A DNA stretch of 64,000 nucleotides. Origin: an uncultured Acidimicrobiaceae bacterium (GTDB lineage: Bacteria; Actinomycetota; Acidimicrobiia; Acidimicrobiales; Bog-793). The notes under the pieces were generated by a model. It was not told where the DNA came from, ran no database searches, and saw only the letters and a program-made list of their open reading frames with translations. A program made the translations under genes and the position numbers. The stretch lies in contig CAWDPZ010000011.1 of assembly GCA_963804265.1 (NCBI GenBank), positions 2,242-66,241 of the forward strand, written 5' to 3'. Below, piece by piece: positions 13,459-64,000 of the stretch. How positions within the stretch are numbered: the first letter of the stretch is position 1; the number at the start of each line of letters is the position of its first letter.

Positions 13459-13551
13459 GTCCGGATTATCGGCGTCTTCTTTCGGGGGGTTGAGGGCATT
13501 TCTTGCGGGGCACGGTGCCAGGCCCTACGGTCGCCGACGAGGAGGGATGCG

Positions 13552-17509: not shown

Positions 17510-17519
17510 GGCGAGAAGG

Positions 17520-43844: not shown

Positions 43845-43894
43845 GCAGAGCCGGATAGCGCCCGAGGCGGATCTCGAAGTTCCTGAGCCGAGCC

Positions 43895-45139
43895 TCACAG
43901 GTGCCCGATCCGGATGCCGCGCTCGGGCAGCCGGACATGGAATCCGAGCCACCCGATCACGAGGCCGGCGCCCAGCACCGCCTGGGAGATGGCGAAGGTG
44001 CCCCGCGCCCCGAAATGGCCGACGAGGGCGCCCGCCAGGAGCGGGCTCACCACTGTCGCAAGTGCCCAGACGAGGTTCAGGAGCCCCATCACGACACCGA
44101 GTCCCACACCGGCCCGGTTGGCCCCGGAAGCGCCGAGGGGATAGCCGACGGCCCAGAGGACCGAACGAATGGCAGAGGTGGCGCACAGCATCAACACGAC
44201 GCAGACCGGTGCGCTGCTGGCGGTGGCCGGCGAGACGACGAAGGCGAGGACGAGGCCGGCGCCGAGCACGGTCTTCAGCCGGACGGCGCGCATCCCGACG
44301 CGTTTGGTGGCCATGCTGCCGACGATGAAAAGCACGGCGGCGACCGAGAACGCCACCCCGATCGTGCCGTCCGACGCGCCCGATGCATGCAGCTCGAGCG
44401 GGGCCAGCAGCGTCACGAGAGCAGCGCTCGCGCCCGCGACGGCCACGGCGACACTCGCCCCGAGCACCCTCGGGTCACCGGAGGCGGAACGGATGCTGGC
44501 GAGAACGCCGATTGGCTCGAAGGAGCTGACACCTTCGAGATCGACGGCCGTCAACAGGAGCGTCACGACGGTCGTCAGGACGGCCGCGACGACGAGCGGG
44601 GCCGCGAGGCCGAAGTACTGGGCGAGGATTCCGGCGAAAGCCGGTCCGGCGATGCAGCCGAACCCGGAGGCCGTGATGGTTCCCGTCATCGTCGTCTCGT
44701 CGTCGCAGGCCCTTGTGAGCCAGGTCAGGGCCGATGTCCACACGATGCCGTAGCCGAGGCCGAAGACGAAACGGGTCATCGAGCAAGAACGCGAACGAGG
44801 GGGCGAACGCCTGGCCCAGGGTCGAGGCGACGAGGAGCCAGCCGGACCACAACGTCAGCACCCGGGCACCGAAACGATCGGAGAGGGCCCCCGCCGGCAG
44901 CGAGATGACGAGGGCCGCGACGCCGGTGGCGGCGAGGAGCTCTGCTACCTGCACGCTGCCGAGCTGGAACCGCTCCTGGTAGGCGGGCAGGAGCGGGGCG
45001 ATGGCGGACTGCAGGACCGAGCTCAAGAGCGCCAGCGCGTAGACGAGGAGACGCAGCCGGCCGACCCGGGGATCCCCGCCGGCCTCGCCCGCCGCCGCCG
45101 CCCTTCCGGGTCGGCCACGTTGTCAGGTGTCTCGATCAT
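43895..45139 (-). CDS. MFS transporter, two frame breaks (~45100, ~44781)
   Basis: About 12 predicted hydrophobic helices are spread over ORFs 44475..45026 and 43895..44779. The ATG at 45139 (MIETPDNVADP..) is in a third frame. There is an MFS loop-like motif LSDRFGAR. Confidence 0.7.
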
Positions 45140-45308
45140 CTGTCGTCTTCTCGTAATGTCCCAGCTCCATCTACCATCTAACGGACGCTGGACTCTTCCC
45201 ACTTCCAGTATTTTACGACAACTAAGGTCGCTACTAAACTGAATATTTGATGCCAGAACGATCGGTGTGGTCGATCGATAAAGGGGTCGGTCTCGCGAGC
45301 TGCGGGCC
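45140..45308. promoter_or_regulatory. AT-rich divergent promoter/operator region between the MFS and LysR genes
   Basis: This is locally the lowest GC in the window (..CAGTATTTTACGACAACTAAGGTCGCTACTAAACTGAATATTTGATGCC..). It contains T-N11-A-type half sites and lies between divergent genes. Confidence 0.4.
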
Positions 45309-46179
45309 TTGCTGGCGGTCGCCGACCTCGGCTCGTTTCGGCGGGCGGCCTCCGAGCTCGGCTACACCCAGTCTTCGATCTCGCATCAGGTCGCCGCTCT
45401 AGAACGCGCTCTCGGTACCGAACTGTTCACCCGACCGGGCGGACGGGGAGCGGTCAAGCTCACCGCTGCCGGCGCGGCCGCTTACCGACGGGCCGCGGCG
45501 CGCCCTCGGGGAGGTGGAGGCCATCGGCGCCGACGTCGAGTCGACCGCCCGGGGCGAGCGGACGCGTATCCGAGTCGGCGTCTCCCAGACCGCGGCCGCC
45601 GAGGTGATGCCGGCCGCCCTGCGCTCGTTTCGCGAGACCTACCCCGACGTCGAGGTGATCCTGAGCGAGATCGAGGAGATCCAGGCCATCATGAGCGGCC
45701 TCGGACGCGGGAGGCTGGACCTCGCCTTCGCCCTCAACCCCGAGCCCGACGAGCGTGTGGAGGCGATCCCGCTCCTCGAGGATCCGTGGGTGATCCTGAC
45801 CCGACGCGACAGCTCGCTGGGCGACGTCGAACATCCGAGCTTCGACCTCCTCGACGGGAGGCAGCTCGTCGCCTGGACGCGACGCTGGAGCAGCCAGCTC
45901 GAGCTGGAGGAAGCGTGGCGCCGGCGCGGAATCGCGCCGCGCATCGTCTATCGGACAGACGACAACCTCGCGTTGCAGCGCCTCGTGGCCGCCGGCCTCG
46001 GCCATGCCTGCATCGGGCGCATCGCGGCCCGGCGGGCGATCGACTCCTCGCTCACGTGGCTCGCGCCCCGCGAGCGCCTGACGACTCGCCAGATGGCGTT
46101 GTGCTACCCGCGGCACCGGGCCATCACGGGGCCCGTTTCTTCTCTGATCTCGGCGATCCGGGCCCACTCGGACGGCTGA
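45309..46179 (+). CDS. LysR-family transcriptional regulator, frame broken near 45495. The start is unresolved (probably another break near 45292).
   Basis: The HTH is LAVADLGSFRRAASELGYTQSSISHQVAALE. The substrate-binding domain is in ORF 45514..46179. In frame there is no start codon between the TAA at 45279 and the conserved LRALLAV. GTG 45265 and ATG 45250 lie in the neighbouring frame. Confidence 0.7.
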
Positions 46180-46298
46180 GCCCAACTGCGGTTTGCCGGG
46201 AGCTTCGGCCCGCAGGAGGACGAGCCGGGCCGAGGCGACGGGGATATGAAGTGGTGCCGGCCGAGCGTCGACAGGACTCGGGCCCGATCTGCTCGCAG

Positions 46299-47743
46299 TC
46301 AGTCGCCGAGCTCGGCCCGCCGCCGCGCGACATAGTCCTCGAGCTCCTCGCGGATGGAGTCGTCGAGCGGAGGCTGCTCGTACTCGTCCAGTGCCTTCTC
46401 GTAGATCGCCTTCGCCCGGGCGGCAGCGTCGAGAGCGCCCTGGCGTGACCAGCGTTCGAAGTTCATGGAGGACGAGAGCAGGGGGCGGTAGAAGCACTCA
46501 CGGAACCGGTCCATCGTGTGGGCGGCGCCGAAGAAGTGGCCGCCGTGGCCGACCTCGAGGTGGGCGTCGAAGGCAAGTGCGGCCTCGTCGATCTCGAGGG
46601 GGGTGAACTCCACCCGCAGCATCCTCAGCAGCTCGAGGTCGATGATGAACTTCTCGTAGCTGCTGACGAGGCCGCCTTCCAGCCAGCCGGCCGAGTGCAT
46701 GACCCAGTTCGTGCCCGCCAGGAACGTCGGCAACAAGGTCATGAGGGCCTCGTAGGCGGCCTGGGCGTCGGGAGTCTGGCTCGAGGTGAGGCACCCGCCG
46801 GTTCGAAACGGCAGGCCGTAATGTCTGGCGAGCTGCCCGGTGCAAAGAGCCCGATGGCCGATTCGGGCGTCCCGAAGCACGGCGAGCCCGACTGCATGTC
46901 GATGTTGGAAAGGAACGACCCGAAGATGACGGGGCATCCGGGCCTGATGAGCTGGGCGAGGGCGATCCCCGACAGCGCCTCTGCCAACTGCTGGGCGAGG
47001 GCCGCCGGGATCGTCACCGGGGACATCGCCCCCATGAGCAGAAAGGGCGTCAGGACAACCGGCTGGTTGGCGAGGTTGTACTCGAACTGCGCGTCGAGCA
47101 TCCGGTCGTCCCAGCGCAAGGGTGAATTGCAGTTGATGAGCGAGATCGTCGCAGGTGTCTCCTCGATCGTCTCGCGACCGCCGAAGAGGATCTCGGTCAT
47201 CCTGATCGTGTCGAGGGCGTTCGGCCCGGAGACGACGCTGCCCATGTAGATCTTGTCGGTCAAGGTCTGCAGGGCGAAGATCATGTCGAGGTGCCGCGAG
47301 TCGAGCGGGGCGTCGTTCGGCTCGCAGATCACGCCGCCGGCCGAGTCGAGCTCGGGGAAGCTCTGGGCGAGCATGGAGAACCGACGGAAGTCGGACATCG
47401 TTGCGTCCCTGCGGACGTCGCCTTCCCTCACGAACGGCGGCCCGTACACGCCGCCGAAGACCATGTGGTCGCCGCCGATGTGAACCGTGTTCGTGGGATT
47501 GCGCGCCTGCACGTCGAATTCCCGCGGCGCCTTCGCGACTTGCTCGAGCACGAAGTCGGGGTCGAGCCAGACCGTCTGGTCGTCCACTTTCTGCCCCGCC
47601 CGTCGGAACAGCTCGATCGCCTCCGGCTTGACGAACTGGACCCCGATCTCCGACACGATGCGCCGCCAGCCGCGGTCGAGCACCTCGATCGCGTCGGGGG
47701 AAAGCAGCTCGTAACGGGCCATCTTGTTGACGAACATCGCCAC
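46299..47743 (-). CDS. MttB-superfamily (trimethylamine methyltransferase family) corrinoid-dependent methyltransferase, non-pyrrolysine type (MtgB-like), frame broken near 46858
   Basis: The N-terminus YELLSPDAIEVLDRGWRRIVSEIGV is followed by LINCNSPLRWD and FLLMGAMSPVT. The reading continues as ALCTGQLARHYGLPFRTGG...HSAGWLEGGLVSSYEKFIIDLELL in ORF 46299..46937. There is no in-frame TAG. The start is ambiguous (47743, 47737 or 47722). Confidence 0.85.
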
Positions 47744-47765
47744 CTCACTTCACGCGGTCCCCGCC

Positions 47766-47812
47766 TTGACGCTCTTGGCCGGGCATTTTAGACTCACATA
47801 GTAGAACTATGT
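47766..47812 (+). promoter_or_regulatory. Putative promoter (-35 TTGACG, 17-nt spacer, -10 TAGACT) followed by a perfect palindrome overlapping the IclR start codon
   Basis: TTGACG lies at 47766-47771 and TAGACT at 47789-47794. ACATAGT-aga-ACTATGT at 47796-47812 contains the ATG at 47809. This implies a leaderless or near-leaderless transcript. Confidence 0.4.
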
Positions 47813-48625
47813 CTCGCAAAATGGAACAGAGCCAGCAACAGAGCCAGCTGAGTGCCGTGGCCCGGCCGACCGGGTCACAAGCCATCGACCGCGCCGCGGG
47901 CCTTCTGTGCCTGGTCGTCGATGCCTCCGACCCCGTGACGTTCACCGAGCTCGCCAAATCGAGCGGTCTGGCAAAGAGCACAACTTCTCGCATCTTGTTG
48001 GCTCTCGAGCGCAACGGGCTCGTGCGACGCGAGCCCGGCGGAGCCTTCAGGCCCGGCGACGCCTTCGTGCGCTATGCGCTCAGGTCCAACACCGAGACGG
48101 ATCTCGCCCGGCCTCGCCCGCCCGTACCTCGAGAGACTCGGCGAGCTGACCAGAGAGACGATCAATCTGGGCGTCGTCCACGGCGCCATGGTGGAACAGA
48201 TCGCTCAGATCGACAGCCACTACGTCCTCGGCGGGACCAACTGGCTGGGCCGCTCGGAGCCCTTGCACTGCACGGCTCTCGGCAAGGTGCTCGTTGCCTT
48301 CGGTGCCGCCGAGCTGCCGCCCGGTCGGCTGCTGCGCCTGGCGCCGAAGACGGTCACCCGCCGGTCTGTCCTCGAGGCCGAGCTGGCCGAGGTCCGCCGC
48401 CGCGGGTACGCCCTGGCCGACGAGGAGCTGGAGCCCGGGCTCGTCGCCGTCGCGGCGCCCGTGCGAGGGGAAGGTCGTGCCGCCTCAGCCGCCGTTTCGG
48501 TCTCGGGGCCTTCCACGCGCCTCGGGCCGACCCGATTGACCGAAGTAGCCGCGCAGTGCATGGCCGCAGCCGACGCCCTGTCTGCCGCGCTCGGCCACCG
48601 ACCACAGAGGAAGGGTGCAGCGTGA
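47809..48625 (+). CDS. IclR-family transcriptional regulator, frame broken near 48100
   Basis: The HTH is FTELAKSSGLAKSTTSRILLALERNGLV. The effector domain (LARPYLERLGELTRETINLGVV...VSVSGP) is in ORF 48074..48625. Confidence 0.7.
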
Positions 48626-49287
48626 ACAAGGACGAGCTTCTCAAGCAGATGTACGACGACACTCTTGTCGGCAACGCACCGGCTGTGCTCGAGCTCACCA
48701 ATGCCGGGCTCGCGATGGGGCTCAACCCCGAGACGCTGCTCTTCGAGGCGCTCATTCCCTCTCTCGAAGAAGTGGGAGCCCGCTTCGAGCGGGGCGACTT
48801 CTTCGTACCGGAGATGCTCATCGCCGGGCGGGCGATGGCAGGGGCCCTCGAGGTGCTGAGGCCGCTCCTGGCCGAGACCGGGGTCGAGCCGGTCGGCACT
48901 TTCGTCATGGGTACGGTCAAGGGCGACGTGCACGACATCGGGAAGAACCTCGTGAACATCATGCTCGAGGGTGCCGGTTTCCACGTCATCGACCTCGGCG
49001 TGCAGGTGGCGCCGGAGAAGTTCATCGAGGCCGTCAAGGAGCACAAGCCCGACATCGTCGGCTTCTCCGCCTTTTTGACCACGACGATGCCGATGTTCAA
49101 GGCGAACATCAACGCCCTCGAGAAGGCGGGACTGCGCGACCAGGTGATCGTGATGGTCGGCGGAGCGCCGGTCACCCAGGAGTACGCCGACGCGGTGGGG
49201 GCGGACGGCTACGCTTCGGACGCGTCGGCGGCGGTGAGCCGGGCCAAGGACCTAATGGCCCGCAGGGGCGCCGTCGCCCCTTCCTAG
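48622..49287 (+). CDS. Cobalamin-binding corrinoid protein (MtgC/MttC-like)
   Basis: The GTG at 48622 overlaps the IclR stop (GTGA) and follows GAGGAAGGG. It has an N-terminal four-helix cap, the B12 motif GDVHDIGKN (DxHxxG), then SAFLTTT and GGAP. Confidence 0.85.
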   Translation: MNKDELLKQMYDDTLVGNAPAVLELTNAGLAMGLNPETLLFEALIPSLEEVGARFERGDFFVPEMLIAGRAMAGALEVLRPLLAETGVEPVGTFVMGTVKGDVHDIGKNLVNIMLEGAGFHVIDLGVQVAPEKFIEAVKEHKPDIVGFSAFLTTTMPMFKANINALEKAGLRDQVIVMVGGAPVTQEYADAVGADGYASDASAAVSRAKDLMARRGAVAPS

Positions 49288-49309
49288 CGGGCTACGGTCG
49301 AGACCAGCC

Positions 49310-50172
49310 ATGCACACGGTTCTGCGCTCCGCCTCCCGGCAAGTCGTGATCGGCGACGACCAACCCTTTTGCATCATCGGCGAGCGCATCAACCCCACCG
49401 GCCGCAAGATCTTCCAGGAGCAGTTGCGCGCCGGCGACCTGTCGCGCATCGAGATCGACGTGGCCCAGCAGGTTGCCGGAGGCGCCATGGTGCTCGACGT
49501 GAACATGGGAGTCCCCCTCGGGGACGAGGTGGCCCTCATGATCCAGGCCGTGAAGCTGATCCAGAGCATCACGGATCTGCCGCTTTGCATCGACTCGTCG
49601 GTCATCGAGGCGCTCGAGGCCGGGCTTTCGACCTACGACGGCAAGGCCCTCGTCAACTCGGTCACCGCAGAGGACGAGCGGCTGGAGGCGATCCTGCCCG
49701 CTCGTCAAGCGATACGGGGCGGCGGTCATCGCGCTCCCCAACGACGAGAACGAGATCCCCGAGCAGCCGGAGCGGCGTCTCGAGCTTGCCCGCAAGATCG
49801 TCGAGGTCGCGACGGGCACTTACGGCATCGCCGAGGAGGACATCGTGCTCGACCCCTTGGCGATGCCCATCGGCGCGGACACCACGCCTCGTCGTGAGGA
49901 CATTGGAGACGATCTCTCTCGTCCACGACGAGCTCGGCCTGAACATGACACTCGGTGCTTCGAACGTGTCGTTCGGGATGCCCGACCGTGAGACGATCGG
50001 GGCCTCGTTCCTCTCCATGGCGATGCGCTCGGGACTCACGAGCGCCATCATGGACGCCCGCTCGCCTCATCTCGTGCGGGCTGTCAAAGCCGCCGACCTC
50101 GTGCTCGACCGGGACCCGTGGGGGGCCTCCTGGATCGCCGCCCACCGGTCCAAGCAAGCGGCGGGCCAATGA
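49310..50172 (+). CDS. Pterin-binding methyltransferase (methyl-corrinoid:tetrahydrofolate methyltransferase, MtgA/MetH-pterin-domain-like), two frame breaks (~49700, ~49887)
   Basis: IGERINPTG, LDVNMG and IDSS are in the first frame. LVKRYGAAVIALPNDE...DPLAMPIG is in the second. GASNVSFGMPDR is in the third. Confidence 0.75.
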
Positions 50173-52085
50173 CGGGCCAACCGGCGCCGCAGGCTCACGA
50201 TCTGGCCGAGCCGGCCGGGAGCCGAGCTCGGTCACGAGGGCGACCCGGCATCTGACGGGCGGGGCCGTTTCGACCTCCTCTTCGAGCCCCCTGGCCGAAA
50301 AGTACGGGTTCCTCCGGGCGTGATGCTCTTCGACGCGGCGAGCTGGAACGGCATCGCCATCGACTCGACCTGCGGGGGACACGGCACCTGCCGCAAGTGC
50401 AAGGTCAAGATCCTCGACTCGGCCACGCCGATATCGCCCCTCGACACCCGGGCGTTCTCGGTCGACGAGCTCCGCGACGGCTGGCGGCTCGCGTGCCGCG
50501 TGCAGGTGGCGACCGATCTCCGCGTCGAGGTGCCCCCGCTCGTGACGCGCCCGAAGGCGGCGACGGTCGGCGTCGGGCGCAAGGTGATCCTGCGCCCGGC
50601 GGTCCAGAAGCGGTACGTGGAGCTGACCGAGCCGACGTTGTCAGACCAGACGACCGATCTCGAGCGCCTCTTCTCGAGCTTCGACGACCTGGAGCTGCGA
50701 GTCGACCTGGAGGTCTTGCGAACGCTCGGCGCCGTGCTGCGGGAGAACGACTACAAGGTCACCGCGGTCCTCGTCGACGACGTCCTGGTCGCGGTCGAGC
50801 CCGGCGACACCACAGAGCGCGTCTTCGCGATCGCCTTCGATCTCGGGACGACGACGGTGGTCGCGACCCTGCTCGACCTGTCGACGGGGGCTCCGCTCGC
50901 CGTGCAGTCGATGCTCAACAAGCAGCAGCCTTTCGGGGCGGACGTCATCACCCGTATCAGCACGATCATGACCGACGACCGGGCGCTCGACCGGCTCTGC
51001 CGGCTCGCCCACGAGACGCTGGACGAGCTGGCGCAGGCGGTTTGCGAGGCCGCCGGCGTGCTCCCGTCCGAGGTCTACGAAGTCGCCCTCGCCGGGAACG
51101 CCACCATGACCCACATCGTCCTCGGTATCGACCCGGAGCCCTTGGGAGTGGCGCCTTTCATCATGGCGACGCGGCTGTTCCCCGAGGTCCTCGCGCATCA
51201 CGTCGGCGTGAAGGTGCACGAGCGGGCCCGAGCGGTGATCTTCCCTTCCTTCGGCGCCTATGTCGGCGGCGACATTGTCGCAGGACTTCTCGCCTCGGGC
51301 ATGGACCGCGACTCGCGCATCCGGCTCTTCATCGACGTGGGCACCAACTGCGAGCTCGTGCTCGGCAACACCGACCGCCTTCTCGCGACGGCCGCGCCGG
51401 CCGGGCCGGCCTTCGAGGGCGCGGCGATCCGCTGCGGCATGCGGGCCGCGCCGGGCGCCATCGAGGTGGTGAAGATGACCACCGACGGCTTGGAGCTCGG
51501 CGTCATCGCGCGACGTCGAGCCGGTGGGACTGTGCGGGTCCGGGCTCGTCGACGCCGTCGCCGAGCTCGTCCGGTTGCAGCTCATAGACAGCTCCGGGCG
51601 CTTTGTGCCCGAGGAGGACGCCGCGCAGCTCGCGCCCGGCCTCGCCGTCAGGCTGACCATGGTCGGCAAGGAGCGGGTCTTCGTCCTCCACTGGCGAGGC
51701 GAGGCGGCGAATTCGATCTACCTGTCGCAACGCGACGTCCGCGAGCTCCAGTTCGCCAAGGCTGCCATCGCCGCCGGCTGGAATGTCCTCCTCGAGGAGG
51801 CCGGACTCAAGGCCGAGGACGTGCAGCAGGTCCTGCTCGCCGGCTCGTTCGGCAGCTATCTCTCGCCTGCAAGTGCCGTCAGGCTCGGTCTCGTCCCTGA
51901 CCTGCCGCTGCTGCGGATCGTGAGCGCCGGGAACGTGGCCGGCGAAGGGGCGAAGATGGCGCTGCTTGTCCATGAGAGAGCGCGCCGGGGCCATGGCTCT
52001 GCTCGACGAGGTCGAGTACGTCGAGCTGTCCGACCGGGCCGACTTCAATGACCGCTTTGTCGACCAGCTGCCCTTCCCCGTCTGA
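50169..52085 (+). CDS. RamA-type corrinoid reductive activase (2Fe-2S ferredoxin + ASKHA/DUF4445 domain), three frame breaks (50172-50250, ~51510, ~51968)
   Basis: The ATG at 50169 overlaps the upstream stop (ATGA). Motifs are FEPPGRKVRVPPG...CGGHGTCRKCKV (2Fe-2S), FDLGTTTVV and IDVGTNCELV, then LCGSGLVDAV...LLAGSFGSY in another frame. The tail ends at TGA 52083-52085. Confidence 0.75.
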
Positions 52086-52737
52086 GCCGGGCGGCGCCGC
52101 CCCGCCGGTGGACGCGTCGGTCATCGCCTGCGGCGCGCTCGGGCCGTCGATCCGCCAGATAGCCGCCCGTCGCGGGTGGCCGGTCGAGCTGCACTGCCTG
52201 CCGCCCCTGTTGCACAACCGCCCCCGCGAGATCGCGCCGCGCGTCGAGCTGCTCGCCCGGCGACTTCTGTCGGCGGGCAGATCCGTGGTGCTCGCCTACG
52301 CCGACTGCGGTACCTACGGGGCCCTCGACGGGGTATGCGAACGACTCGGGATCCGCAGGCTCGCCGGACTGCACTGCTATGACGTGTTCGCGGGTGCCGA
52401 CAAGATGCGCGACCTGTTCGACGACGAGCCCGGGACCTATGTCCTCACCGACTTCCTCGTGCGCAGCTTCCGCCGGACCGTCCTGAGCGAGCTGGGCCTC
52501 GACCGGCACCCCGAGCTGTGGGGCGACTACTTCGGCAGCTACACCCGGGTCGTCTGGCTCGCCCAGGATCGCACCCCTGCCCTCGAGGAGGAGGCCAAGG
52601 CCGTGGCCGCCCTCTTCGACCTCCCCCTCACCATTGCCGACGCCGGCGTTGTCCGCCTCGAGGCCGCTCTGTCGGAGCTGCTCGGCCCGGGTCGCGCGAC
52701 CCGGCAGGCCAAGCGGGTGCCGGTCAGTCCCCTTTGA
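52048..52737 (+). CDS. DUF1638-domain protein (commonly linked to corrinoid methyltransferase systems)
   Basis: SVIACGALGPSIRQI...LLHNRPREI...YADCGTYGALD...LHCYDVF are typical DUF1638 blocks. An alternative GTG start at 52108 avoids overlap with the corrected activase end. Confidence 0.65.
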   Translation: MTALSTSCPSPSEPGGAAPPVDASVIACGALGPSIRQIAARRGWPVELHCLPPLLHNRPREIAPRVELLARRLLSAGRSVVLAYADCGTYGALDGVCERLGIRRLAGLHCYDVFAGADKMRDLFDDEPGTYVLTDFLVRSFRRTVLSELGLDRHPELWGDYFGSYTRVVWLAQDRTPALEEEAKAVAALFDLPLTIADAGVVRLEAALSELLGPGRATRQAKRVPVSPL

Positions 52738-53458
52738 CGACGGCCGCGAATCGGGCGGCGAACTCCCGCCAGTTGCGGAACAAGCGGTCCTCGGCCGTTC
52801 GCACCTCGGCCACCGCGAGCGCCAGGCGGCGTCGGCGGGAAGCGGGAGCGTCGGCTTCCGCGTCGGCCCAGGCCTGCAGGACCGCAGCGCCGGCCTCGGG
52901 GTGGAACTGCACTCCCCAGGCACGATGTCCGATGCGGTAGGCCTGAACTCTGCAGAGCGCGCTCGAGGCCAGCAGCACGGCTGCGCCGGGAAGCCGGGTG
53001 ATGTCGTCTTCGTGCGCCTGCACGGCCTGTACCGGCGAGGTGACGCCGGCAAAGAGCGGGTCCGCCCGCGCCGCGTCGTTGAGGTCGATCCTGCCCAGCC
53101 CCAGCTCGCCACCTGAGGGGCTCGGCTCCACGAGCCCTCCGCAGGCCGCCGCGAGGAGTTGAGCTCCGAGGCAGATGCCCAGCACGGGCAGCCCGCGGGC
53201 GGTCGTGTCGGCAAGCATCGTCCTCACCCCTACGAGCCAAGGCGCCTTCGCGTCGTCGTGGGCGCCCATCGAGCCGCCGAGGACGAGCAGGCCGTCGTGG
53301 ACGACGGAGTTGGGGATGGCGTCTCCCGCGTAGGGCCGGCAGACGTCGACGTCGACTCCCGAAGCGGCTAGCCACGGCCGGAACATCTCGGGCCCGGCGT
53401 CGCTCTCGTGCTGAACGACGAGCACACGTGCAGAGGTTTTCCCGTCCAAGGCAAGCAT
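52724..53458 (-). CDS. Class-I glutamine amidotransferase-like protein
   Basis: GICLGAQLL (nucleophile Cys) and WGVQFHPE. The ORF is intact. Confidence 0.8.
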   Translation of the reverse strand: MLALDGKTSARVLVVQHESDAGPEMFRPWLAASGVDVDVCRPYAGDAIPNSVVHDGLLVLGGSMGAHDDAKAPWLVGVRTMLADTTARGLPVLGICLGAQLLAAACGGLVEPSPSGGELGLGRIDLNDAARADPLFAGVTSPVQAVQAHEDDITRLPGAAVLLASSALCRVQAYRIGHRAWGVQFHPEAGAAVLQAWADAEADAPASRRRRLALAVAEVRTAEDRLFRNWREFAARFAAVVKGD

Positions 53459-53576
53459 CGTAGGAGCGGGCTCGTCGTCATGCGGTCGCCTTCAGGTCAC
53501 GAGTCCGGCCCGGCGTCGGGCAGACAGCGGCCGACGGCGGTATTTTCGCGAACCACGATCGAGGAGGGGGCCACTC

Positions 53577-54362
53577 ATGGGCGACAGCGAGTCGGACATC
53601 ATCGGGACCGCGGACGATCCTTTGGTCGAGGCCCGGCAGCTCATCGAGAGTGCTTCCAGGGCGGGGCTCCCGCTGCGGCTCCTCGGAGGCTTGGCGGTCC
53701 GCGTCCTCTGCCCCGACTTCCCGCCGCGGCTACGGCGCGATCAGGACATCGACTTCGGCTGCCTCTCCAAGGGCCGCCAGGATGTCGTGTCCTTTCTGGA
53801 GGAGGCCGGCTGCGAGCCGGACCGCCGCTTCAACTCGCTCAACGGCGACCGCCAGATGTACTTCAACGCTCCTTCCGGGCGTCCCATCGACGTCATGGTC
53901 GACCGTCTCGTGATGTGCCACGAGCTCGACTTCCGCCCCAGTTTCGCTGCCCTTCCCCTCACCTTGGACGTCGTCGACCTCCTCCTCACCAAGCTGCAGA
54001 TAATCGAGGTCAACGAGAAGGACGTCCGGGACATCTTGCAGCTCCTCTCCGCCTTCCCCGTCGCCGGCGACAGCCCGGGCGAGGCGGGTCCCGAGATCGA
54101 CCGGGCGCGCTTTTGCAAGCTCCTCGGAGGCGACTGGGGCTGGTGGCGGACGGTCACGAGCAACCTCAACAAGCTGCCGTTGCTGGTCGGCGAGCACCCC
54201 GATCTCCTGCCCGCCGCGCCTGTGCCCCATGACGCGCTCCGCAGCGCCGAGCGCCTGGTCGATCTCGCCGACGCGACACCGAAGTCAATGCAGTGGAAGA
54301 TCCGCGCGAAGGTCGGGGACCGGGTGCGCTGGTACGAGCTGCCCGAGGAGGTCGCCCACTGA
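53577..54362 (+). CDS. Hypothetical protein, possibly with a nucleotidyltransferase fold
   Basis: An intact 261-aa ORF. LRLLGGLAVRVLCPDFPPRLRRDQDIDFG resembles the G-x-a...D-x-D core of uncharacterised nucleotidyltransferases. This is a weak call. Confidence 0.4.
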   Translation: MGDSESDIIGTADDPLVEARQLIESASRAGLPLRLLGGLAVRVLCPDFPPRLRRDQDIDFGCLSKGRQDVVSFLEEAGCEPDRRFNSLNGDRQMYFNAPSGRPIDVMVDRLVMCHELDFRPSFAALPLTLDVVDLLLTKLQIIEVNEKDVRDILQLLSAFPVAGDSPGEAGPEIDRARFCKLLGGDWGWWRTVTSNLNKLPLLVGEHPDLLPAAPVPHDALRSAERLVDLADATPKSMQWKIRAKVGDRVRWYELPEEVAH

Positions 54363-54494
54363 GGCGAAGCCTTGACGCTGCCTGTTCCCGGTGGTACGCA
54401 TTTCCCGTCACAGTCGGTGACTGGGGCAGGGGGAAGCCGGACCAGAAGGATCGGCCGCCGGTCTATCAGCAGTCCTTGGGGGTGAGGGCGGCAC

Positions 54495-55436
54495 ATGAAG
54501 ATCTTCTTCGCGACCGACATCCACGGTTCGGAGGTGTGCTGGAAGAAGTTCCTCAACTCCGCCGCGTTCTACAAGGCCGACATGGTCATCCTCGGCGGCG
54601 ACGTCACCGGCAAGATCATGGTGCCCGTCATCGTCAGGCCCGGATCGTTCGAGGTCGACCCTGTCGGGTGAGACCCATGTCGTCGAGACCGAGGAAGAGA
54701 TCCGCAACATCGAGCAGAAGATCCGCAACCGCGGCTACTACCCGACGCGGATAACGCCAGACGAGCTCGGTGAGCTGAACGAGGAGGACGGCTCCATCGA
54801 CCGGCGCTTCACGACCGAGATGGTGCACACGTTGGACCGCTGGCTCGACATGGCCGACGCCAAGCTCCGCGGGCGGCGAGATCCCCTGCATCGTCAACGG
54901 CGGGAACGACGACACCTTCGAGATCGACGGTGTCATCGAGGCTTCGCCCTGCGTGACCTTCGCCGAGGGAAAGGTCGTGGATCTCGACGGCTTCTACCTG
55001 GCATCCATGGGGTACACGAACCCGACGCCGTGGGACACCTTCCGCGAGGCGCCGGAGGTGGACCTCGCCAAGAGGATCGAGGAAGTCGTCTGCCAGATCC
55101 CGGACATGGAAAGGGCGATCTTCAACTTCCACGCTCCGCCGTTCGACACCGGTCTCGACGACGCCCCGGCCCTCGACGCGAGCCTGCGCCCGATGCACGG
55201 GGGCGCGGTGATGAAGGCGGTGGGGTCGACGGCCGTCCGCGAGGCGATATCTGACCCACCAGCCGATGCTCTCGGTGCACGGGCACATCCACGAGAGCCG
55301 CGGCATCAAAAAGCTCGGGCGGACGCTCGCCATCAACCCGGGCAGCGTCTACACCGACGGCGTCCTGCAGGGCGCTGTCATCGACCTGAACGAGAAGAAG
55401 GGAAAGGTGACGAGGCACATCCTCGTCAACGGCTGA
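54495..55436 (+). CDS. Calcineurin-like metallophosphoesterase, three frame breaks (~54659, ~54874, ~55256)
   Basis: MKIFFATDIHGSE and ILGGDVTGK are in frame 0. CIVNGGNDD, NFHAPP and SVHGHIHES follow in successive frames. The first fragment is too short to appear in the ORF track. Confidence 0.7.
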
Positions 55437-55499
55437 GGCGGGGCACGTCCTCGTCACGAGGCTGAACAGGGATATTCGCTCGAATCAAGGAGGGGGGAC

Positions 55500-57146: not shown

Positions 57147-57230
57147 TCGGTCTCCTCGCTCGGCGTCCGCCGGCAGTCTGCGGACCCCGAGCCTCTCGGA
57201 TGGGATTTGACCAGCTGGGGGACACAGCAA

Positions 57231-57263
57231 GGGCGACCGGCTCGTTCGTCGATCCGGTCGCCC
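57231..57263. terminator. Perfect 10-bp stem hairpin between convergent permease and amt genes
   Basis: GGGCGACCGG-13 nt loop-CCGGTCGCCC, followed by TTGGCTATTGG. There is no clean T-run. Confidence 0.4.
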
Positions 57264-57293
57264 TTGGCTATTGGAGTGCTTCGAGGCGTCAGC

Positions 57294-59216: not shown

Positions 59217-60869
59217 TTGCGGGATCGGTACGACTTCATCATCGTCGGGGGCGGTTCGGCAGGTTGTGCCCTCGCCAACCGGCTCACGGCGCACGAATCC
59301 AACCAGGTTCTCGTCCTCGAGGCCGGTCGCCCCGACTACCGCTGGGACCTGCTCGTTCACATGCCTGCGGCGCTCACCATGCCGATCGGCAACCGCCTCT
59401 ACGACTGGAAGTACGAGTCAGAGCCGGAGCCGCACATGGGCGGCCGGCGGATCTATCACGCCCGGGGGAGGATCCTCGGGGGCTCGAGCAGCATCAACGG
59501 GATGATCTTCCAGCGCGGCAACCCGCTCGATTACGAGCGGTGGGCGGCCGACCCGGGGATGGGGGAGTGGGACTACGCGCACTGCCTGCCGTACTTCAAG
59601 CGTATGGAGACCTGCCTCGCCGGCGCCGACGACTACAGGGGGGGCGACGGGCCTCTCCTGCTGGAGCGGGGGCCGGCCACGAACCCGCTCTTCCGGGCGT
59701 TCTTCGAGGCGGTGCAGCAAGCCGGCTACGAGCTCACGAGCGACGTGAACGGCTACCGCCAGGAGGGCTTCGCCGCTTTCGACAGGACCATCAATCGGGG
59801 CAGGCGCTGGAGCGCAGCCCGTGCCTATCTGCACCCGGTGATGTCGCGGCCGAACCTCGACGTCGTCTGCCGGAGCTTCGTCTCGCGGATCGTCTTTGCA
59901 AGGCGGCGGGCGGTCGGCGTCGAGCTGGGGGCACCGGGAGGTCGCGTCGTGCGGGCGGGAGAGGTCATCTTGTGCGGGGGCGCCTTCAATTCGCCCCAGC
60001 TCCTGCAGCTCTCGGGCGTGGGCAATGCCCGTGAGCTCGAGGCCCTGGGCGCAGAGGTGGTGCTGGACCTTCCCGGCGTCGGTGAGAACCTCCAGGACCA
60101 CCTCGAGGTCTACATCCAGCACTCGTGCACCAAGCCGGTCTCGCTCGCGCCTGCGCTCAAGTGGCGCAACCGGCCGTGGATCGGCTTGCAATGGTTGTTG
60201 CGCAGGGGCCCGGGGGCGACGAACCACTTCGAGGCAGGCGGCTTCGCCCGGAGCAACGACGATGTCCGCTACCCGAATCTGATGTTCCACTTCCTCCCGA
60301 TCGCCGTCCGTTACGACGGCTCGGCTCCGGCCGGCGGCCACGGCTACCAGGTTCACATCGGCCCGATGTACTCGGATTCGAGGGGGTCCGTGAAGATCAC
60401 CTCGCTCGATGCGAGGGTCCACCCGGCGTTGCGCTTCAACTATCTGTCCACCGACCAGGACCGCAGCGAGTGGGTCGAAGCGGTCCACGTGGCCCGGAAC
60501 ATCCTTCAACAGAGCGCCTTTGCCGAGTTCGAGGGCGGGGAGATCTCGCCCGGGCCGAGCGTCTCGAGCGACAGCGAGATCCTCGACTGGGTCGGACGCG
60601 ACGGCGAGACGGCGCTCCATCCTTCGTGCACCTGCAAGATGGGGACAGATGAGCTGTCCGTGGTCGACCCCTCCACCATGTCGGTTCACGGCCTCGAAGG
60701 GCTTCGCGTCGTCGACGCGTCCGTCATGCCGTACGTCACCAACGGCAACATCTACGCACCCGTGATGATGGTGGCCGAGAAGGCGGCCGACCTCATCTTG
60801 GGCAACACGCCGCTCGCTCCGGCCACGGTCGGCTTCTACCGTCGCGACACCGCCGGAGGCCCCTCTTAG
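59217..60869 (+). CDS. betA: GMC-family oxidoreductase, choline dehydrogenase-like
   Basis: The TTG start follows GGAGG. Motifs are [27 protein letters not shown], a C-terminal HPSCTCKMG and DASVMP. The ORF is intact. Confidence 0.8.
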
Positions 60870-60926
60870 GGCCCGTCCCGCCCGTTGGGCCGCCCCGGCC
60901 GGGCCGACCCGCCCGGCTGTGCGGTT

Positions 60927-61911
60927 CTAGGCCGTGCCGCTCCGCTGGCGGATGGCGGCGACGAGAGCGGGGATGACCACGCTCAGGTCGCCGATCACCG
61001 CGTAGTCGGCAGCGCGAGATGATGGGCGCGTCCGCGTCGGTGTTGACGGCGATCACGTGCTTGGCGCTCTGGCAGCCCGCCAGGTGCTGGATGGCGCCGC
61101 TGATCCCACAGGCCATGTAGAGATCCGGGGCGATGCGCGTGCCGGTCTGGCCCACCTGGTGAGCGTGCGAGCGCCAGCCGGCGCTCGTGACCGCCCGCGA
61201 GACTCCGACGGCCGCGCCGAGCAGACCCGCGAGCTCTTCTATCGGGGCGAAGCCGTCGGCGCTGCCGACGCCCCGACCGCCGCCGATGACGACACGCGCC
61301 TCGGCGAGGGTGATGCCAGAGCTCTGCTTGGTCCAGTCCGAGACCCTGACGGCGAGATCCTCCGCCTCGAGAGCGGGTCGGTAGGTCTGCAAGCTGGTCG
61401 TGGCGGGGCTCGGCGCCGGTTCCGGCGCGACCCCGTCGAAGGCGACGGTCAGCAACGCGGGTGAGGCCTCCAAGACGGCGTCCTCGACGAGGCTTCCGGC
61501 CCAGCGCTGCCGGCTGAGCACAACGGTCGTCGCGTCCGACCTTTGGGCCGTGAAGCAGTTGGCCACCATCGGGAGCTCGAGCAGGGCACCGAGGTGGGCC
61601 ATGACCTCGTTGCCGCGGTCGGTGCCTGCGGCGACCGTCGCCGTCGCGGGAAGGCTCGAGCCGAGCCCGGCGAGGGCCCGCGCCCACGCGACCGGCGCGT
61701 ACGAGGCGAGCTCGTCCGAGACGATCGAGTAGGCCGCCGACACCCCGAACGAACAGAGGCTCGCAAGCACAGAAGCGCCCGGCTCGCCGACAACGGCTGC
61801 CGCCAGCTCCTCGCCCGAGGACTCCGCCAAGGCCCTGGAGAAGCTGAGCGCCCGCAGCGAAGCGTCGATCGGCTCGCTGCCGTCGTCCTCGAGGAGGCAA
61901 AGCACGGTCAT
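60927..61911 (-). CDS. etfA: Electron-transfer flavoprotein alpha subunit, frame broken near 61011
   Basis: VIGGGRG, GQTGTRIAPDLYMACGISGAIQHLAG and IAVNTDADAPI. The native tail (SRADYAVIGDLSVVIPALVAAIRQ..-TAG at 60927) is in another frame. Confidence 0.8.
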
Positions 61912-62675
61912 GGCAGGACGCCCAGCTCAGCGAGCAGCTCGACGAGGGCCGGCACCGCATCTACACCGGTGCCGAGGATCTCGGCACGCTGGCGCTCCAC
62001 CACCGGGACCCGGAGGGCCTGCTTGCGCACGGGGTCCCCGCTCCATTGCGGCACGCTCTGTTCGACGGGGGCCTTCTTGGCCCGCATGCGCCCCGGCAAA
62101 GAGGGATAGCGGGGAAGGTTGATGCCTTCTTTGACCGAGACGACGGCGGGCAGTCCGAGCTCGAACAGCTCGTCGCCGCCACGGAACTCCCGCCGCGCGC
62201 GCAGGGCCGGCCCGGCGACCTCGAGGTGCTTGATGCCGGTCGCACACGGGCGCCCGAGGGCGCGCGCCACGCGGATGGCGACCTGGTAGTCGCCGGTGTC
62301 GGCGGCCTCGTTGCCGAACAGGATCAGCTCATGGGCCCCGTTGGCGGCTTCGTCCGCCCTGACGGCCTCGACGATGGCACGGGCCGTCGCCATCGGCCCC
62401 CATTCGCGTCCGTCGGTCTCGAGCAGGAGCAGCCTGCCGGCCCCGATCGCAGCCGCGTCACGGAGCTGCTCGATCGCCTCGGGCGGCCCGAGGGTGAGCA
62501 CCGAGACGGTGCCTGCGTGGGTCTCGATCAACCGGACGGCCTCTTCGACGGCGCACTCCTCGTGCGGGCTTATCGTGAACCCGAGCAGGTGCGTGTCGAT
62601 CTCCTGCGCGTCCGGGGTCACAGCGACCCTGGCGCCGACCATCGGGACCCGTTTCACGCACACGAGGACGTTCAC
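61908..62675 (-). CDS. etfB: Electron-transfer flavoprotein beta subunit
   Basis: MNVLVCVKRVP and LILFGNEAADTGDYQV. It is intact and has a 4-nt overlap with etfA. Confidence 0.88.
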   Translation of the reverse strand: MNVLVCVKRVPMVGARVAVTPDAQEIDTHLLGFTISPHEECAVEEAVRLIETHAGTVSVLTLGPPEAIEQLRDAAAIGAGRLLLLETDGREWGPMATARAIVEAVRADEAANGAHELILFGNEAADTGDYQVAIRVARALGRPCATGIKHLEVAGPALRARREFRGGDELFELGLPAVVSVKEGINLPRYPSLPGRMRAKKAPVEQSVPQWSGDPVRKQALRVPVVERQRAEILGTGVDAVPALVELLAELGVLP

Positions 62676-62679
62676 CGCG

Positions 62680-64000
62680 TCAAGACCTCACTCTCTCGTT
62701 GTCCGGGTCGAACAAGGGGGTGGCGCCGACCACGGCAACCGTCACCGCGTAGCGCTCGCCCAGGTAGTCGACCGCAAGGCTCGAGCCCTGCTTGGCGAAG
62801 GACGTGGGCAGGTAGGCGAGCAGGATGTGCTTTGCGACCGAAGGCCCGGACCCGGCGCTCGTCACATAGGAGGGCCGGCCCTTGTCGTCGACGAGGCGGT
62901 CTCCCGCGGGGGTGAGGACGGGCTCCCCGCCGAGCATGTAGCGCGCCGTCCCGTCCCCCGAGCGCGGGTCGTCCACCGTCAAGGTGCACAGCTGCGCCAC
63001 GGGCTCGTTTGCGCGCTGGCTCAAATAGGCCTGCTTGCCGATGAAGTCGTCCTTCTTCACAGAAGGGCGCGCCATGCCCGCTTCGACGATGTTGTACTCG
63101 GAGTTGAGCTCGCTGCCGAAGGCCCGGTAGCCCTTTTCGAGGCGGCCCGTCGTTGCATAGACACCGATGCCGACGGGGACGAGGCCGCGGCCTTCACCCG
63201 CTTCGTAGAGCCTGTCGAAGGCGCGGGCCCCTTCCTCCATGGGCACGTAGATCTCCCAGCCCAGCTCACCCACATAAGAGATGCGGGATGCCAGCGCCCT
63301 TATGTCGCCGAGCTCGACCGGCCTGCAGGTCCCGAACGGGAAGCCTGCGTTGGAGACGTCGTCGTCGGTGCACGCCTCCATCACCTCCCGGGCCCGGGGA
63401 CCCCACAGGCCGAAGGTGGTCCAGGCCGAGGTGAGGTCGGTCACCTGGGCGGAGCCGTCGTCGGGAAGCTGGTCGCGGATCCAGCGCTTGTCGCTCATGC
63501 CCGTTGCCCCGCCGGTGACGATGCGGAAGTGCTGCGGGCCGAGCCGCATCACCGTCAAGTCGGAGCGGAACCCGCCGCTTTCGTCCAAGAGGGGCGTGTA
63601 GACGACCCGGCCGACAGCCACGTCCATCTGGGCGACAGCGAGACGCTGCAGTCCCGCCAGGGCGCCCGGGCCTGTGACGTCCAGCACGACGAAAGCGGAG
63701 AGGTCGACGATCCCGCAGCCGTCGCGCATGGCGAGGTGCTCGGCGTTGATGATCGGCGACCACCACCGCGACTCCCACTCTCCCGCACGCGGCATCACCT
63801 TGTCGCGGTAGCGGTCGAGGAGAGGCTCGTTGCTCGCGTACCAAAAGGGCCGCTCCCAGCCCGCCGTCTCGTGAAAGACGGCTCCGAGCTCGAGCTCCCG
63901 TGCGTAGACGGGGCTGAGGCGCGTCGGGCGGGCGGACTCCCACTGCTCGGCGGGGTGAACGATCCCGTACATCTTGTTGAAGCCCTCGCGCGCCCGGGCG
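62680..64000 (-). CDS. Dimethylglycine/sarcosine dehydrogenase-family protein. The C-terminal GcvT-like folate-binding part is present. The N-terminal FAD domain lies beyond the window.
   Basis: The ORF is open at the window edge. Aminomethyltransferase-fold blocks are IVDLSAF, YTPLLDESGG, RISYVGELGWEIY and GYRAFGSEL. Confidence 0.8.
   Translation of the reverse strand, partial: ARAREGFNKMYGIVHPAEQWESARPTRLSPVYARELELGAVFHETAGWERPFWYASNEPLLDRYRDKVMPRAGEWESRWWSPIINAEHLAMRDGCGIVDLSAFVVLDVTGPGALAGLQRLAVAQMDVAVGRVVYTPLLDESGGFRSDLTVMRLGPQHFRIVTGGATGMSDKRWIRDQLPDDGSAQVTDLTSAWTTFGLWGPRAREVMEACTDDDVSNAGFPFGTCRPVELGDIRALASRISYVGELGWEIYVPMEEGARAFDRLYEAGEGRGLVPVGIGVYATTGRLEKGYRAFGSELNSEYNIVEAGMARPSVKKDDFIGKQAYLSQRANEPVAQLCTLTVDDPRSGDGTARYMLGGEPVLTPAGDRLVDDKGRPSYVTSAGSGPSVAKHILLAYLPTSFAKQGSSLAVDYLGERYAVTVAVVGATPLFDPDNERVRS

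Follow-up and report, generated by a model that had tools for sequence, protein, structure and literature searches.

Genetic evidence shows that the aerobe Ruegeria pomeroyi DSS-3 needs MtgC and MtgD to use betaine, and betaine induces its MtgB, RamA, a DUF1638 protein and a MetF paralogue (PMC12478193). In split B12 methyltransferase systems, DUF1638 proteins act as the partners of activases resembling RamA (PMC12478193). In D. hafniense, MtgB, MtgC and MtgA (2QNE, 9YCE) form a three-component transfer system to tetrahydrofolate, and the F356L variant of this MtgB has a Km that is several hundred-fold higher (PMC13080624). MtpB, MtcB, MtyB and MthB of Eubacterium limosum belong, by description, to the same superfamily and to a corrinoid/tetrahydrofolate relay, and R312 is kept in all of them (PMC13080624); this organism differs from the one studied here in being an anaerobic acetogen, in the other genomic partners and in the substrates, which are proline betaine, carnitine, gamma-butyrobetaine and phosphocholine. 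MtcB and MtyB are 53% identical and have different preferred substrates (PMC8604678); therefore, identity alone cannot fix the substrate. The pyrrolysine-containing trimethylamine methyltransferase of Methanosarcina barkeri, MttB (7XCL), shares the TIM-barrel family PF06253.

We analyzed a window of 64,000 nucleotides, i.e., the whole stretch of DNA under study, whose source lineage is Acidimicrobiales, as expected from the actinobacterial host proposed in a first-pass annotation. Our main reading, to which we assign a probability of roughly 0.7, is that the locus at 46299-52737 is an MtgB/MtgC/MtgD-type corrinoid methyltransferase system of aerobic Acidimicrobiales, that glycine betaine is its most likely substrate, and that the copy can be treated as intact. 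A Pfam profile search of the window recovered all six gene families of the module that had been proposed there, in the same order: the MTTB match on the minus strand (46299-47743) and, on the plus strand, HTH_IclR, B12-binding_2 with B12-binding, Pterin_bind, Fer2 with RACo_linker, Raco_middle and RACo_C_ter, and DUF1638. The features of the module, and of a second block in the window, are the following.

46299..47737, minus strand: MttB-superfamily non-pyrrolysine methyltransferase, MtgB-like (PF06253; 479 codons once repaired)
46788..46790, minus strand: CTC codon, Leu317, aligned to pyrrolysine 334 of M. barkeri MttB
47738..47820, no strand: divergent regulatory region between mttB and iclR
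47821..48625, plus strand: IclR-family regulator (alternative start 47809)
48622..49287, plus strand: corrinoid (B12-binding) protein, MtgC-like, 221 aa, intact (B12-binding_2 plus B12-binding)
49310..50172, plus strand: pterin-binding methyl-corrinoid:tetrahydrofolate methyltransferase, MtgD/MtgA-like (286 aa repaired; Pterin_bind partial in the window)
50169..52085, plus strand: RACo-type ATP-dependent reductive activase of corrinoid proteins (637 aa repaired)
52108..52737, plus strand: DUF1638 protein, 209 aa, intact (PF07796; alternative start 52048)
59217..60869, plus strand: choline dehydrogenase BetA (TIGR01810 betA, 818.8 bits, cut-off 732)
60793..62675, minus strand: ETF alpha (to 61911) and beta (61908-62675) (Pfam ETF, ETF_alpha)
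62680..64000, minus strand: C-terminal part of a DAO-FAO_M-GCV_T dimethylglycine/sarcosine-dehydrogenase-family gene (GCV_T plus GCV_T_C), continuing past the window end

The R. pomeroyi families, i.e., the MttB-family, B12-binding, pterin-binding, RACo/RamA-like and DUF1638 proteins (PMC12478193), are all present here, and the two systems further resemble each other in the aerobic host, in the link to genes of choline, dimethylglycine and sarcosine catabolism and, among relatives of the window, in an MTHFR paralogue. The suggestion that such systems come mostly from anaerobes is outdated, given that MtgBCD, RamA and DUF1638 operate in this aerobe (PMC12478193). Conversely, the genes are scattered in R. 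pomeroyi, whereas here they form a compact divergent operon with an IclR gene, the host is an actinobacterium, and the locus has no MTHFR and no MtgE/split methionine synthase partner that we could see. The DxHxxG motif of the corrinoid protein lies within GDVHDIGKN, which had been singled out earlier and maps to 48922-48948. The best NCBIfam models for this protein are those of glycine-betaine-specific MtgC (NF047996 / NF047995), matched below their cut-offs (212.6 bits vs 370; 163.6 vs 310), which is a difference from D. hafniense MtgC; NCBIfam contains no MtgB model. The intact orthologue of the pterin-binding gene scores above the cut-off of NF005719 (296.5 bits vs 259), and the RACo-type activase, composed of an N-terminal 2Fe-2S ferredoxin domain and an ASKHA part, has AcsV as its top NCBIfam model (430 bits, below cut-off).

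Related species were sampled as 80 loci from a GTDB scan, i.e., those among the matches listed. In these listed loci, MttB is co-located with IclR in 76, MtgC in 74, MtgD in 73, RACo in 67 and DUF1638, placed after RACo, in 63; the MtgBCD-type gene set with its reactivation components (DxHxxG corrinoid protein, pterin-binding protein, RACo and DUF1638) is thus present in the window and recurs, component by component, in 63-76 of 80. The neighbors of the module among the same matches listed are MTHFR (49), ETFa (30), ETFb (26), a DMGDH-like gene (18) and a BetA-like GMC gene (14); the window, unlike the 49 relatives, has no MTHFR at the module. The matches listed include at least three distinct arrangements that link DMGDH to the module, a variety that speaks for functional coupling. 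Among the closest Acidimicrobiales there, the order is MTHFR-DUF1638-RACo-MtgD-MtgC-IclR / MttB-DMGDH-ETFb-ETFa-GMC, so that in these listed sister-species modules DMGDH-ETFb-ETFa-BetA directly follows MttB. The window contains orthologues of this block at 62-78% identity, located at 59.2-64 kb, i.e., 6.5-11 kb from the module and not adjacent to it, where betA, ETF and a DMGDH-family gene had indeed been noted: BetA shares 78% identity with the GMC gene that flanks the module in sister species, the ETF genes are orthologous to those beside MttB, and the DMGDH-like gene is 74% identical to the 843-aa gene directly after MttB. The link to downstream betaine catabolism is, accordingly, found in both the relatives and the window. 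Judged from the sequence, glycine betaine is the best-supported substrate, because of the MTHFR, DMGDH, ETF and BetA neighbors in the relatives and the same block in the window.

The divergent regulatory region contains, on the plus strand, a promoter-like element, TTGACG-17-TAGACT (47766-47794), and directly 3' of it a palindrome, ACATAGT-AGA-ACTATGT (47796-47812); a scan gave 1 site against 0.1 expected. This palindrome is probably the IclR operator. The same promoter, as TTGACC/TAGGAT, and GTTCyA-type repeats precede MttB in the majority of the 80 loci among the matches listed.

The MttB-family enzyme itself was compared through its intact 479-aa orthologue, P0001, to which the window protein is 99% identical. 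P0001 belongs to PF06253, and the two fragments in the window together cover this profile over its full length (positions 24-320, E 3.5e-109, and 320-500, 1.6e-73, in two frames). The annotated lack of an in-frame TAG is borne out: Leu317 aligns to X334 of 7XCL, which places the enzyme in the non-pyrrolysine branch, and leucine occupies this position in 77 of the 78 orthologues that were aligned from the 80 loci among the matches listed. In a full-length alignment, P0001 is 41% identical to the proven MtgB of D. hafniense and shares with it leucine at the pyrrolysine position as well as Y97 (Y98 here), R312 and H348; the carboxylate-binding residues are kept in 78/78 (R312) and 77/78 (H348) of the orthologues among the matches listed. 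Of the four residues that experiments have shown to bind betaine in MtgB, one is not kept, as the aromatic pair Y97/F356 is represented by Y98 alone and F356 is replaced by glycine in P0001 and in 78/78 orthologues among the matches listed; an invariant tryptophan, W352, lies four residues before this glycine. Further differences from the D. hafniense system are the aerobic host and another regulator. The Y98/R312/L317/H348/W352/G356 signature is invariant or has one exception at each position in the 78 aligned orthologues among the matches listed, including those that adjoin DMGDH. The closest solved structure, a putative trimethylamine methyltransferase of Sinorhizobium meliloti (4YYC; 443 bits, 46% identity), has the GWLEGG segment in common and glycine at the F356 position; this likeness has no bearing on the substrate.

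The first-pass annotation was correct in gene families, order, motif and distances, but not in taking the genes as intact, since four of the six are not intact open reading frames in the window. The genes for MttB, IclR, the pterin-binding protein and RACo are disrupted by single-base indels, which the first reading overlooked; only the genes for the corrinoid protein and DUF1638 are intact. In MttB, alignment and frame analysis point to a 1-nt deletion at 46844, resulting in overlapping ORFs 46739-47743 and 46299-46937. In IclR, a 1-nt insertion near 48112 puts HTH_IclR and the effector domain in different frames and accounts for a false 492-aa "IclR-B12" fusion in the ORF list (intact orthologues have 263-267 aa, with HTH_IclR plus IclR_C), and there is also an in-frame 12-nt duplication near 47825-47836. 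The pterin-binding gene is interrupted by single inserted nucleotides at 49696 and 49890, and the RACo gene has indels at 50221, 50251/50253, 51511 and 51964. If these frameshifts were real, a stretch of about 34 kb (21.8-55.3 kb) that includes the module and the ergothioneine-type cluster next to it would be turning into pseudogenes in this strain. The distribution of the indels favors such decay: there are about 25 frameshift candidates within this stretch vs 3 in the other 30 kb, and 10 of 16 genes are broken inside, compared to 10 of 10 tested ORFs that are full-length in the clean flanks, a contrast that errors spread at a uniform rate would not give; the ratio of indels to neutral substitutions is high, yet possible. 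However, an accessory region covered locally at low depth, or by mixed strains, would account for this clustering just as well, and ten short-read metagenome contigs, assembled independently and 95.6-98.7% identical at the DNA level, lack the indels and have every module gene intact. In comparison with the related contigs, the genes contain no nonsense codons and no large deletions; dN/dS is 0.02-0.26 across genes, with third-position-biased substitutions, and is no higher in broken than in intact genes, and the bias persists against the closest contig (98.7% identical), with mismatches of 16:11:67 over the codon positions. The indels are mainly single-base, non-homopolymer insertions, unlike slippage products and contrary to the usual deletion bias of bacteria. 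We consider real decay unlikely; on this sequence evidence the frameshifts are most likely consensus errors, and for this reason the system is treated as intact.

Different functions of an intact system have to be weighed against betaine demethylation. R. pomeroyi cannot make methionine without the same four components (PMC12478193), and MtgC, MtgD, RACo and DUF1638 might double here as a split methionine synthase, in the Ruegeria/Phaeobacter style, making the module primarily biosynthetic. In related Actinomycetes among the matches listed, a 344-aa core-MetE-like gene (14-17 loci) or MetH (9) indeed lies within 10 kb; however, relatives with a full-length MetH beside the module need no split enzyme, the window contains no homocysteine-binding (S-methyl_trans) gene, MetH or core-MetE, and a dedicated MttB-family gene with an IclR regulator indicates catabolism, such that this role is rather improbable. 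A further set of proposals arises from the neighboring ergothioneine-type cluster, whose LysR gene had been reported about 120 nt away; the measured distance is 119 nt from the LysR stop (46179) to the MttB stop (46299), and the two genes are convergent (tail-to-tail) and, therefore, share no promoter. The adjacency had been taken as a hint that the methyltransferase acts on hercynine or ergothioneine, or scavenges trimethylamine. The module adjoins the cluster in the window, in L001-L006, in L087/L088 and in several peat contigs, and L091 (lyase 73%) presents a second, differently arranged juxtaposition, in which the ergothionase-like lyase is 2.5 kb away from an MttB paralogue (62% identical) that comes with an IclR gene of its own. 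An alpha-N-trimethyl amino-acid betaine such as hercynine or ergothioneine, or another betaine, could also be accommodated if the change of F356 to glycine widens the pocket while the carboxylate-binding arginine and histidine are retained, and identity to proven MtgB is just 41%. Conversely, no ergothioneine-type cluster occurs within 10 kb of the module in any of the 80 related species among the matches listed, and these same-signature orthologues are paired with DMGDH, ETF, BetA and MTHFR. The adjacency is restricted to a single shallow clade, in which lyase identity is 80% or more, and varies even among its members; each cluster is found without the other, L089/L090 having kept the ergothioneine-type cluster and lost MttB through MtgD, and the lyase-cluster contigs with long flanks and lyase of 77% identity or less contain no MttB gene, with the single exception of L091. 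The paralogue of L091 has a different pocket (Y97 and H348 both replaced by Q), hence little bearing on the window protein, and a literature search returned no paper connecting MttB with ergothioneine. Across lineages, the module and the cluster are neither co-located nor co-oriented as a functional unit would be, and the adjacency looks like a lineage-specific accident. We regard a substrate other than glycine betaine for the window enzyme as highly unlikely, and it is just as hard, if not slightly harder, to credit that the entire Y98/R312/H348/W352/G356 actinobacterial clade demethylates a bulkier alpha-N-trimethyl amino-acid betaine, e.g., hercynine, in which case the juxtapositions in the window clade and in the L091 paralogue would be real and would represent corrinoid-dependent histidine-betaine catabolism in aerobic soil bacteria. 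Scavenging of trimethylamine released by the neighboring ergothionase-like lyase is barely conceivable: the adjacency, which is not conserved, and the family name, derived from the trimethylamine methyltransferase, are all that favor it, whereas leucine stands in place of Pyl334, the carboxylate-binding arginine and histidine are both retained, the former (Arg312) at the site of Tyr329 in M. barkeri MttB, the match to the structure of that enzyme is 132 bits, the score against the pyrrolysine-type equivalog model TIGR02369 is 268.9 bits vs a cut-off of 525, and characterized non-pyrrolysine members all use quaternary amines (PMC13080624, PMC12155760). Thus, of the earlier interpretation, the betaine-type architecture and glycine betaine as the parsimonious substrate agree with our results, whereas the substrate idea drawn from the ergothioneine adjacency does not.

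What the sequences show directly is the content and order of the genes, their conservation, the identity of the residues and the genomic contexts; for the glycine betaine system, we infer which substrate is used, which way the methyl group flows and that IclR is the regulator. The MttB-family enzyme would transfer one methyl group from a carboxylate-bearing quaternary amine, with glycine betaine as the likeliest donor and dimethylglycine as the released product, to the Co(I) corrinoid of the B12-binding protein, from which the pterin-binding enzyme would pass it to tetrahydrofolate. The RACo-type 2Fe-2S/ASKHA protein, together with DUF1638, would re-reduce corrinoid that has been oxidized to Co(II), and IclR may control the divergent promoters via the conserved mttB-iclR operator. 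BetA, presumably an upstream pathway step encoded outside the operon, would supply betaine from choline, and further demethylation could then fall to the DMGDH-like enzyme, which would pass its electrons to ETF. The module is a typical representative of a type described only recently, matching by gene families the aerobic system of R. pomeroyi reported in 2025. Its host is a soil or peat member of the Acidimicrobiales, in which the module most likely removes a methyl group from glycine betaine and delivers it to folate in a B12-dependent manner.

Searching the open reading frames (ORFs) with Pfam, we confirmed at 46299-52737 all six gene families named by the first-pass annotation, in the order it gave; that annotation was correct as to content, but it overlooked that the reading frames are broken. 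The module reads as follows:

46299-46937, minus strand: MTTB, profile positions 320-500
46739-47743, minus strand: MTTB, profile positions 24-320
plus strand, in this order: HTH_IclR; B12-binding_2 and B12-binding (GDVHDIGKN motif at 48922-48948); Pterin_bind; Fer2 and three RACo domains; DUF1638

MTTB is thus split over two overlapping ORFs in different frames, the IclR HTH and B12 domains are joined in one spurious 492-aa ORF, and Pterin_bind and RACo_C_ter give only partial matches in the window. On a GC3 frame plot, frame switches fall within MttB, IclR, the pterin-binding gene and RACo as well as within the neighbouring LysR. After repair, MttB shares 99% identity with P0001, an orthologue of 479 aa that is intact in Acidimicrobiales metagenome bins. 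In the six contigs that carry P0001 (L001-L006), all genes are intact (MttB 479, IclR 263-267, corrinoid protein 221, pterin-binding protein 286, RACo 637 and DUF1638 209-229 aa). These contigs are 95.6% identical to window positions 38086-57754, where the window differs from them by 30 single-base insertions, 18 single-base deletions and one in-frame 12-nt duplication. The last is a tandem repeat at 47825-47836 that adds four residues (QQSQ) to the IclR N-terminus. The majority of the indels insert a base different from those on either side, which is not the pattern of homopolymer slippage; for MttB, slippage in a G run was ruled out, the alignment revealing a non-homopolymer deletion.

Projected on the intact frames of L001-L006, substitutions fall at codon positions 1:2:3 as 132:89:492, the window genes contain no nonsense codons, and dN/dS is 0.02-0.26 in most genes, being no higher in the broken genes than in the intact ones. 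Three nearer contigs (L125, L094 and L123, with 98.7%, 98.1% and 97.4% identity) are likewise free of the coding indels seen in the window; for L125, the mismatches are still distributed over codon positions as 16:11:67. A Viterbi model of the reading frame, calibrated with known indels that it places within a few bases, yields ~25 single-base frameshift candidates in 21.8-55.3 kb (~34 kb) and three in the remaining ~30 kb. Together with ten ORFs tested by Pfam outside this stretch, all full-length, the model ruled out frameshifts across the whole window, a picture produced by an over-fragmenting GC3 segmentation. Programmed frameshifting was rejected: the sites vary in sequence, are spread over many unrelated genes, and no relative has them. 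It is very likely that the indels are consensus errors arising where the assembly is poorly supported or mixes strains, positions 21800-55300 probably being a locally poor consensus; real recent decay, the other explanation of the broken frames, is unlikely. Also affected in this stretch are the ergothioneine-type cluster, an ABC transporter gene, an MFS gene and a Metallophos gene. Reading frames at ~21.8-55.3 kb need correction before they are trusted.

At the system level, the mechanism, that of a methyl-transfer module, is close to certain. The pterin-binding protein clears the NCBIfam model of methyl-THF:corrinoid methyltransferase, the activase resembles RACo/AcsV and carries a 2Fe-2S domain at its N-terminus, and the top NCBIfam model for the corrinoid protein is "glycine betaine-specific corrinoid protein MtgC", with a score under the cut-off. 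NCBIfam contains no MtgB, MtpB, MtcB or MtyB model. The closest solved relative of MttB is the uncharacterised Sinorhizobium meliloti protein 4YYC (46% identity), and MtgB, the glycine betaine methyltransferase of Desulfitobacterium hafniense, is among the best solved relatives (41%). Glycine betaine binding in MtgB involves Y97, R312, H348 and F356, as established by mutagenesis and a betaine-bound structure (PMC13080624); three of these four residues are kept in the module's MttB, and F356 is replaced by Gly. It should be noted that R312 and, less so, H348 also recur in enzymes that act on other quaternary amines with a carboxylate or acidic group, whereas the aromatic pair does not (PMC13080624). 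Therefore, the pocket points to a betaine-like substrate with an acidic group and does not on its own single out glycine betaine.

The genomic context of relatives narrows this choice. Scanning one genome per GTDB species, we found at least 80 loci with an MttB at 81-90% identity, of which 80 were sampled (L007-L086); the carriers among them belong to Acidimicrobiales, Streptosporangiaceae, Micromonosporaceae and other groups, and include the cultured Asanoa iriomotensis. Neighbour families were defined by clustering and Pfam.

Gene families near MttB in the 80 listed loci
IclR: 76/80
MtgC: 74/80
MtgD: 73/80
RACo: 67/80
DUF1638: 63/80
MTHFR-like: 49/80
ETF alpha: 30/80
ETF beta: 26/80
DAO-FAO_M-GCV_T, dimethylglycine-dehydrogenase-like (DMGDH): 18/80
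GMC/BetA-like: 14/80
core-MetE-like methionine synthase, 344 aa, within 10 kb, Actinomycetes (e.g., L057 16174-17208): 14-17/80
MetH, full-length, within 10 kb of the module, Actinomycetes relatives (e.g., L052 16454-20095): 9/80
any of seven ergothioneine-side genes: 0/80

Among the matches listed, the closest Acidimicrobiales have the order AAperm-Metallophos-MTHFR-DUF1638-RACo-MtgD-MtgC-IclR, followed beyond IclR by MttB-DMGDH-ETFb-ETFa-GMC. In other lineages, DMGDH-ETF is attached at the opposite end or in reversed orientation, and this repeated joining in varied arrangements is good evidence that the module and DMGDH-ETF are functionally coupled. Across 78 aligned orthologues, the residues of the pocket signature (Y98/R312/L317/H348/W352/G356) are invariant or vary in a single case, so that the context evidence carries over to the window's MttB. 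The window itself has the orthologous block at 59.2-64 kb (GMC 78%, DMGDH 74%, ETFb 69%, ETFa 62% identity), and its GMC clears the betA equivalog cut-off. We found no MTHFR anywhere in the window, and this lineage has none at the module locus; where 49 of the 80 listed relatives have the MTHFR paralogue, this lineage has a glutamine-amidotransferase-like gene (52724-53458), convergent with DUF1638. The MetE-like and MetH neighbours hint that betaine-derived methyl groups and the synthesis of methionine are linked. Across Acidimicrobiia and Actinomycetes, MttB and MtgC of the 80 loci are each 81-90% identical, the adjacent IclR just 50-78%; such conservation between classes is unusual and suggests that the module spread horizontally or is under very strong constraint. 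The join to DMGDH-ETF and MTHFR in relatives supports glycine betaine, which the first-pass annotation had favoured, as the substrate, with a probability of about 0.7.

The same annotation had raised, from the proximity of a putative ergothioneine locus, the alternative that hercynine or ergothioneine, or the released methylamine, could be the substrate. Besides the module, the window holds:

36860-46179: ergothioneine-type cluster with ErtD-like amidohydrolase, thiourocanate-hydratase-like and thiohydantoin-desulfurase-like genes, M20 peptidase, HAL-family (ergothionase-like) lyase, MFS transporter and LysR (45250-46179, plus strand)
14346-18761: a classical histidine-utilisation set, distinct from the genes of thiourocanate type at 38 kb, with urocanate hydratase, formiminotransferase-cyclodeaminase and imidazolonepropionase-like amidohydrolase, all full-length

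At 36860-45139, the highest-scoring NCBIfam models, each matched short of its cut-off, are those for ErtD, thiourocanate hydratase and thiohydantoin desulfurase. The adjacency at first seemed unique to the window's species, an idea dropped when a search from the lyase side found a sister clade and L091. In the sister lineage, whose lyase is 82% and whose MttB is 91% identical, the module and the cluster adjoin as in the window, MTHFR is kept, and a cysteine-dioxygenase-like CDO_I gene is inserted between LysR and MttB (L087 13994-14737; L088 14029-15012, with a rhodanese fusion in L088), an insert matching no NCBIfam model. Another lineage (lyase 85%) has the cluster and LysR, with RACo as the sole remnant and MttB through MtgD lost; at 13073-16657 of its contigs L089/L090, LysR is followed directly by the lone RACo, then GATase and Amt, an arrangement suggestive of a deletion that removed MttB, IclR, MtgC and MtgD and left an orphan activase. 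Among peat contigs with a lyase at least 80% identical, MttB is present in some and absent in others, and among those at 77% or below with enough flank, it occurs in L091 alone. The window-type adjacency is therefore that of one shallow clade, and is polymorphic there. LysR and MttB (stop at 46299) are, moreover, arranged tail-to-tail. The two gene sets each being found alone, this one-clade adjacency and the tail-to-tail arrangement argue against coupling for the window's enzyme, and our literature search found no published link between MttB and ergothioneine. Hercynine or ergothioneine is accordingly an improbable substrate, and trimethylamine a still less probable one: MttB is a non-pyrrolysine enzyme, with Leu317 (CTC, 46788-46790) aligned to the pyrrolysine X334 of Methanosarcina barkeri MttB, and is distant from Pyl-MttB (132 bits).

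L091 (lyase 73%) is a separate lead from the window's enzyme. Its MttB paralogue (13374-17192, with its own IclR) is 62% identical to P0001, has Q in place of both Y97 and H348, and has the ergothionase-type cluster on one side and a second HAL-like lyase on the other, with no corrinoid protein or activase within 10 kb; its substrate may be a different betaine.

The 83-nt mttB-iclR intergenic region contains a promoter-like element, TTGACG-17-TAGACT, and two bases downstream of it a palindrome, ACATAGT-AGA-ACTATGT, which overlaps an upstream alternative iclR start codon (47809). Most of the 80 listed loci conserve both the promoter hexamers and repeats of the GTTCyA type. This fits a predicted IclR operator that would control both transcription units.

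The component set equals that of aerobic Ruegeria pomeroyi, whose betaine demethylation involves an MttB-family protein, MtgC, MtgD, a RamA-like activase, DUF1638 and a MetF paralogue, MtgC and MtgD additionally serving a split methionine synthase (PMC12478193). In Stordalen Mire peat, non-Pyl mttB is expressed by Proteobacteria, and methylated-amine demethylation genes by Actinobacteria (PMC10805028). Given these precedents, the module is a new, uncharacterised actinobacterial example of an already known system. If MtgB/MtgC/MtgD-type methyl transfer from glycine betaine to tetrahydrofolate is the correct reading, B12-dependent, oxygen-independent betaine demethylation would be widespread in peat and soil Actinomycetota, from Acidimicrobiales to Streptosporangiaceae and Micromonosporaceae, including cultured A. 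iriomotensis; this would help annotation and the budgeting of carbon and nitrogen, but would not surprise a specialist. The route would then extend beyond marine Alphaproteobacteria and anaerobes, the sole groups with a demonstration so far, and would imply cobalamin demand and a flow of methyl groups into folate in these soils.
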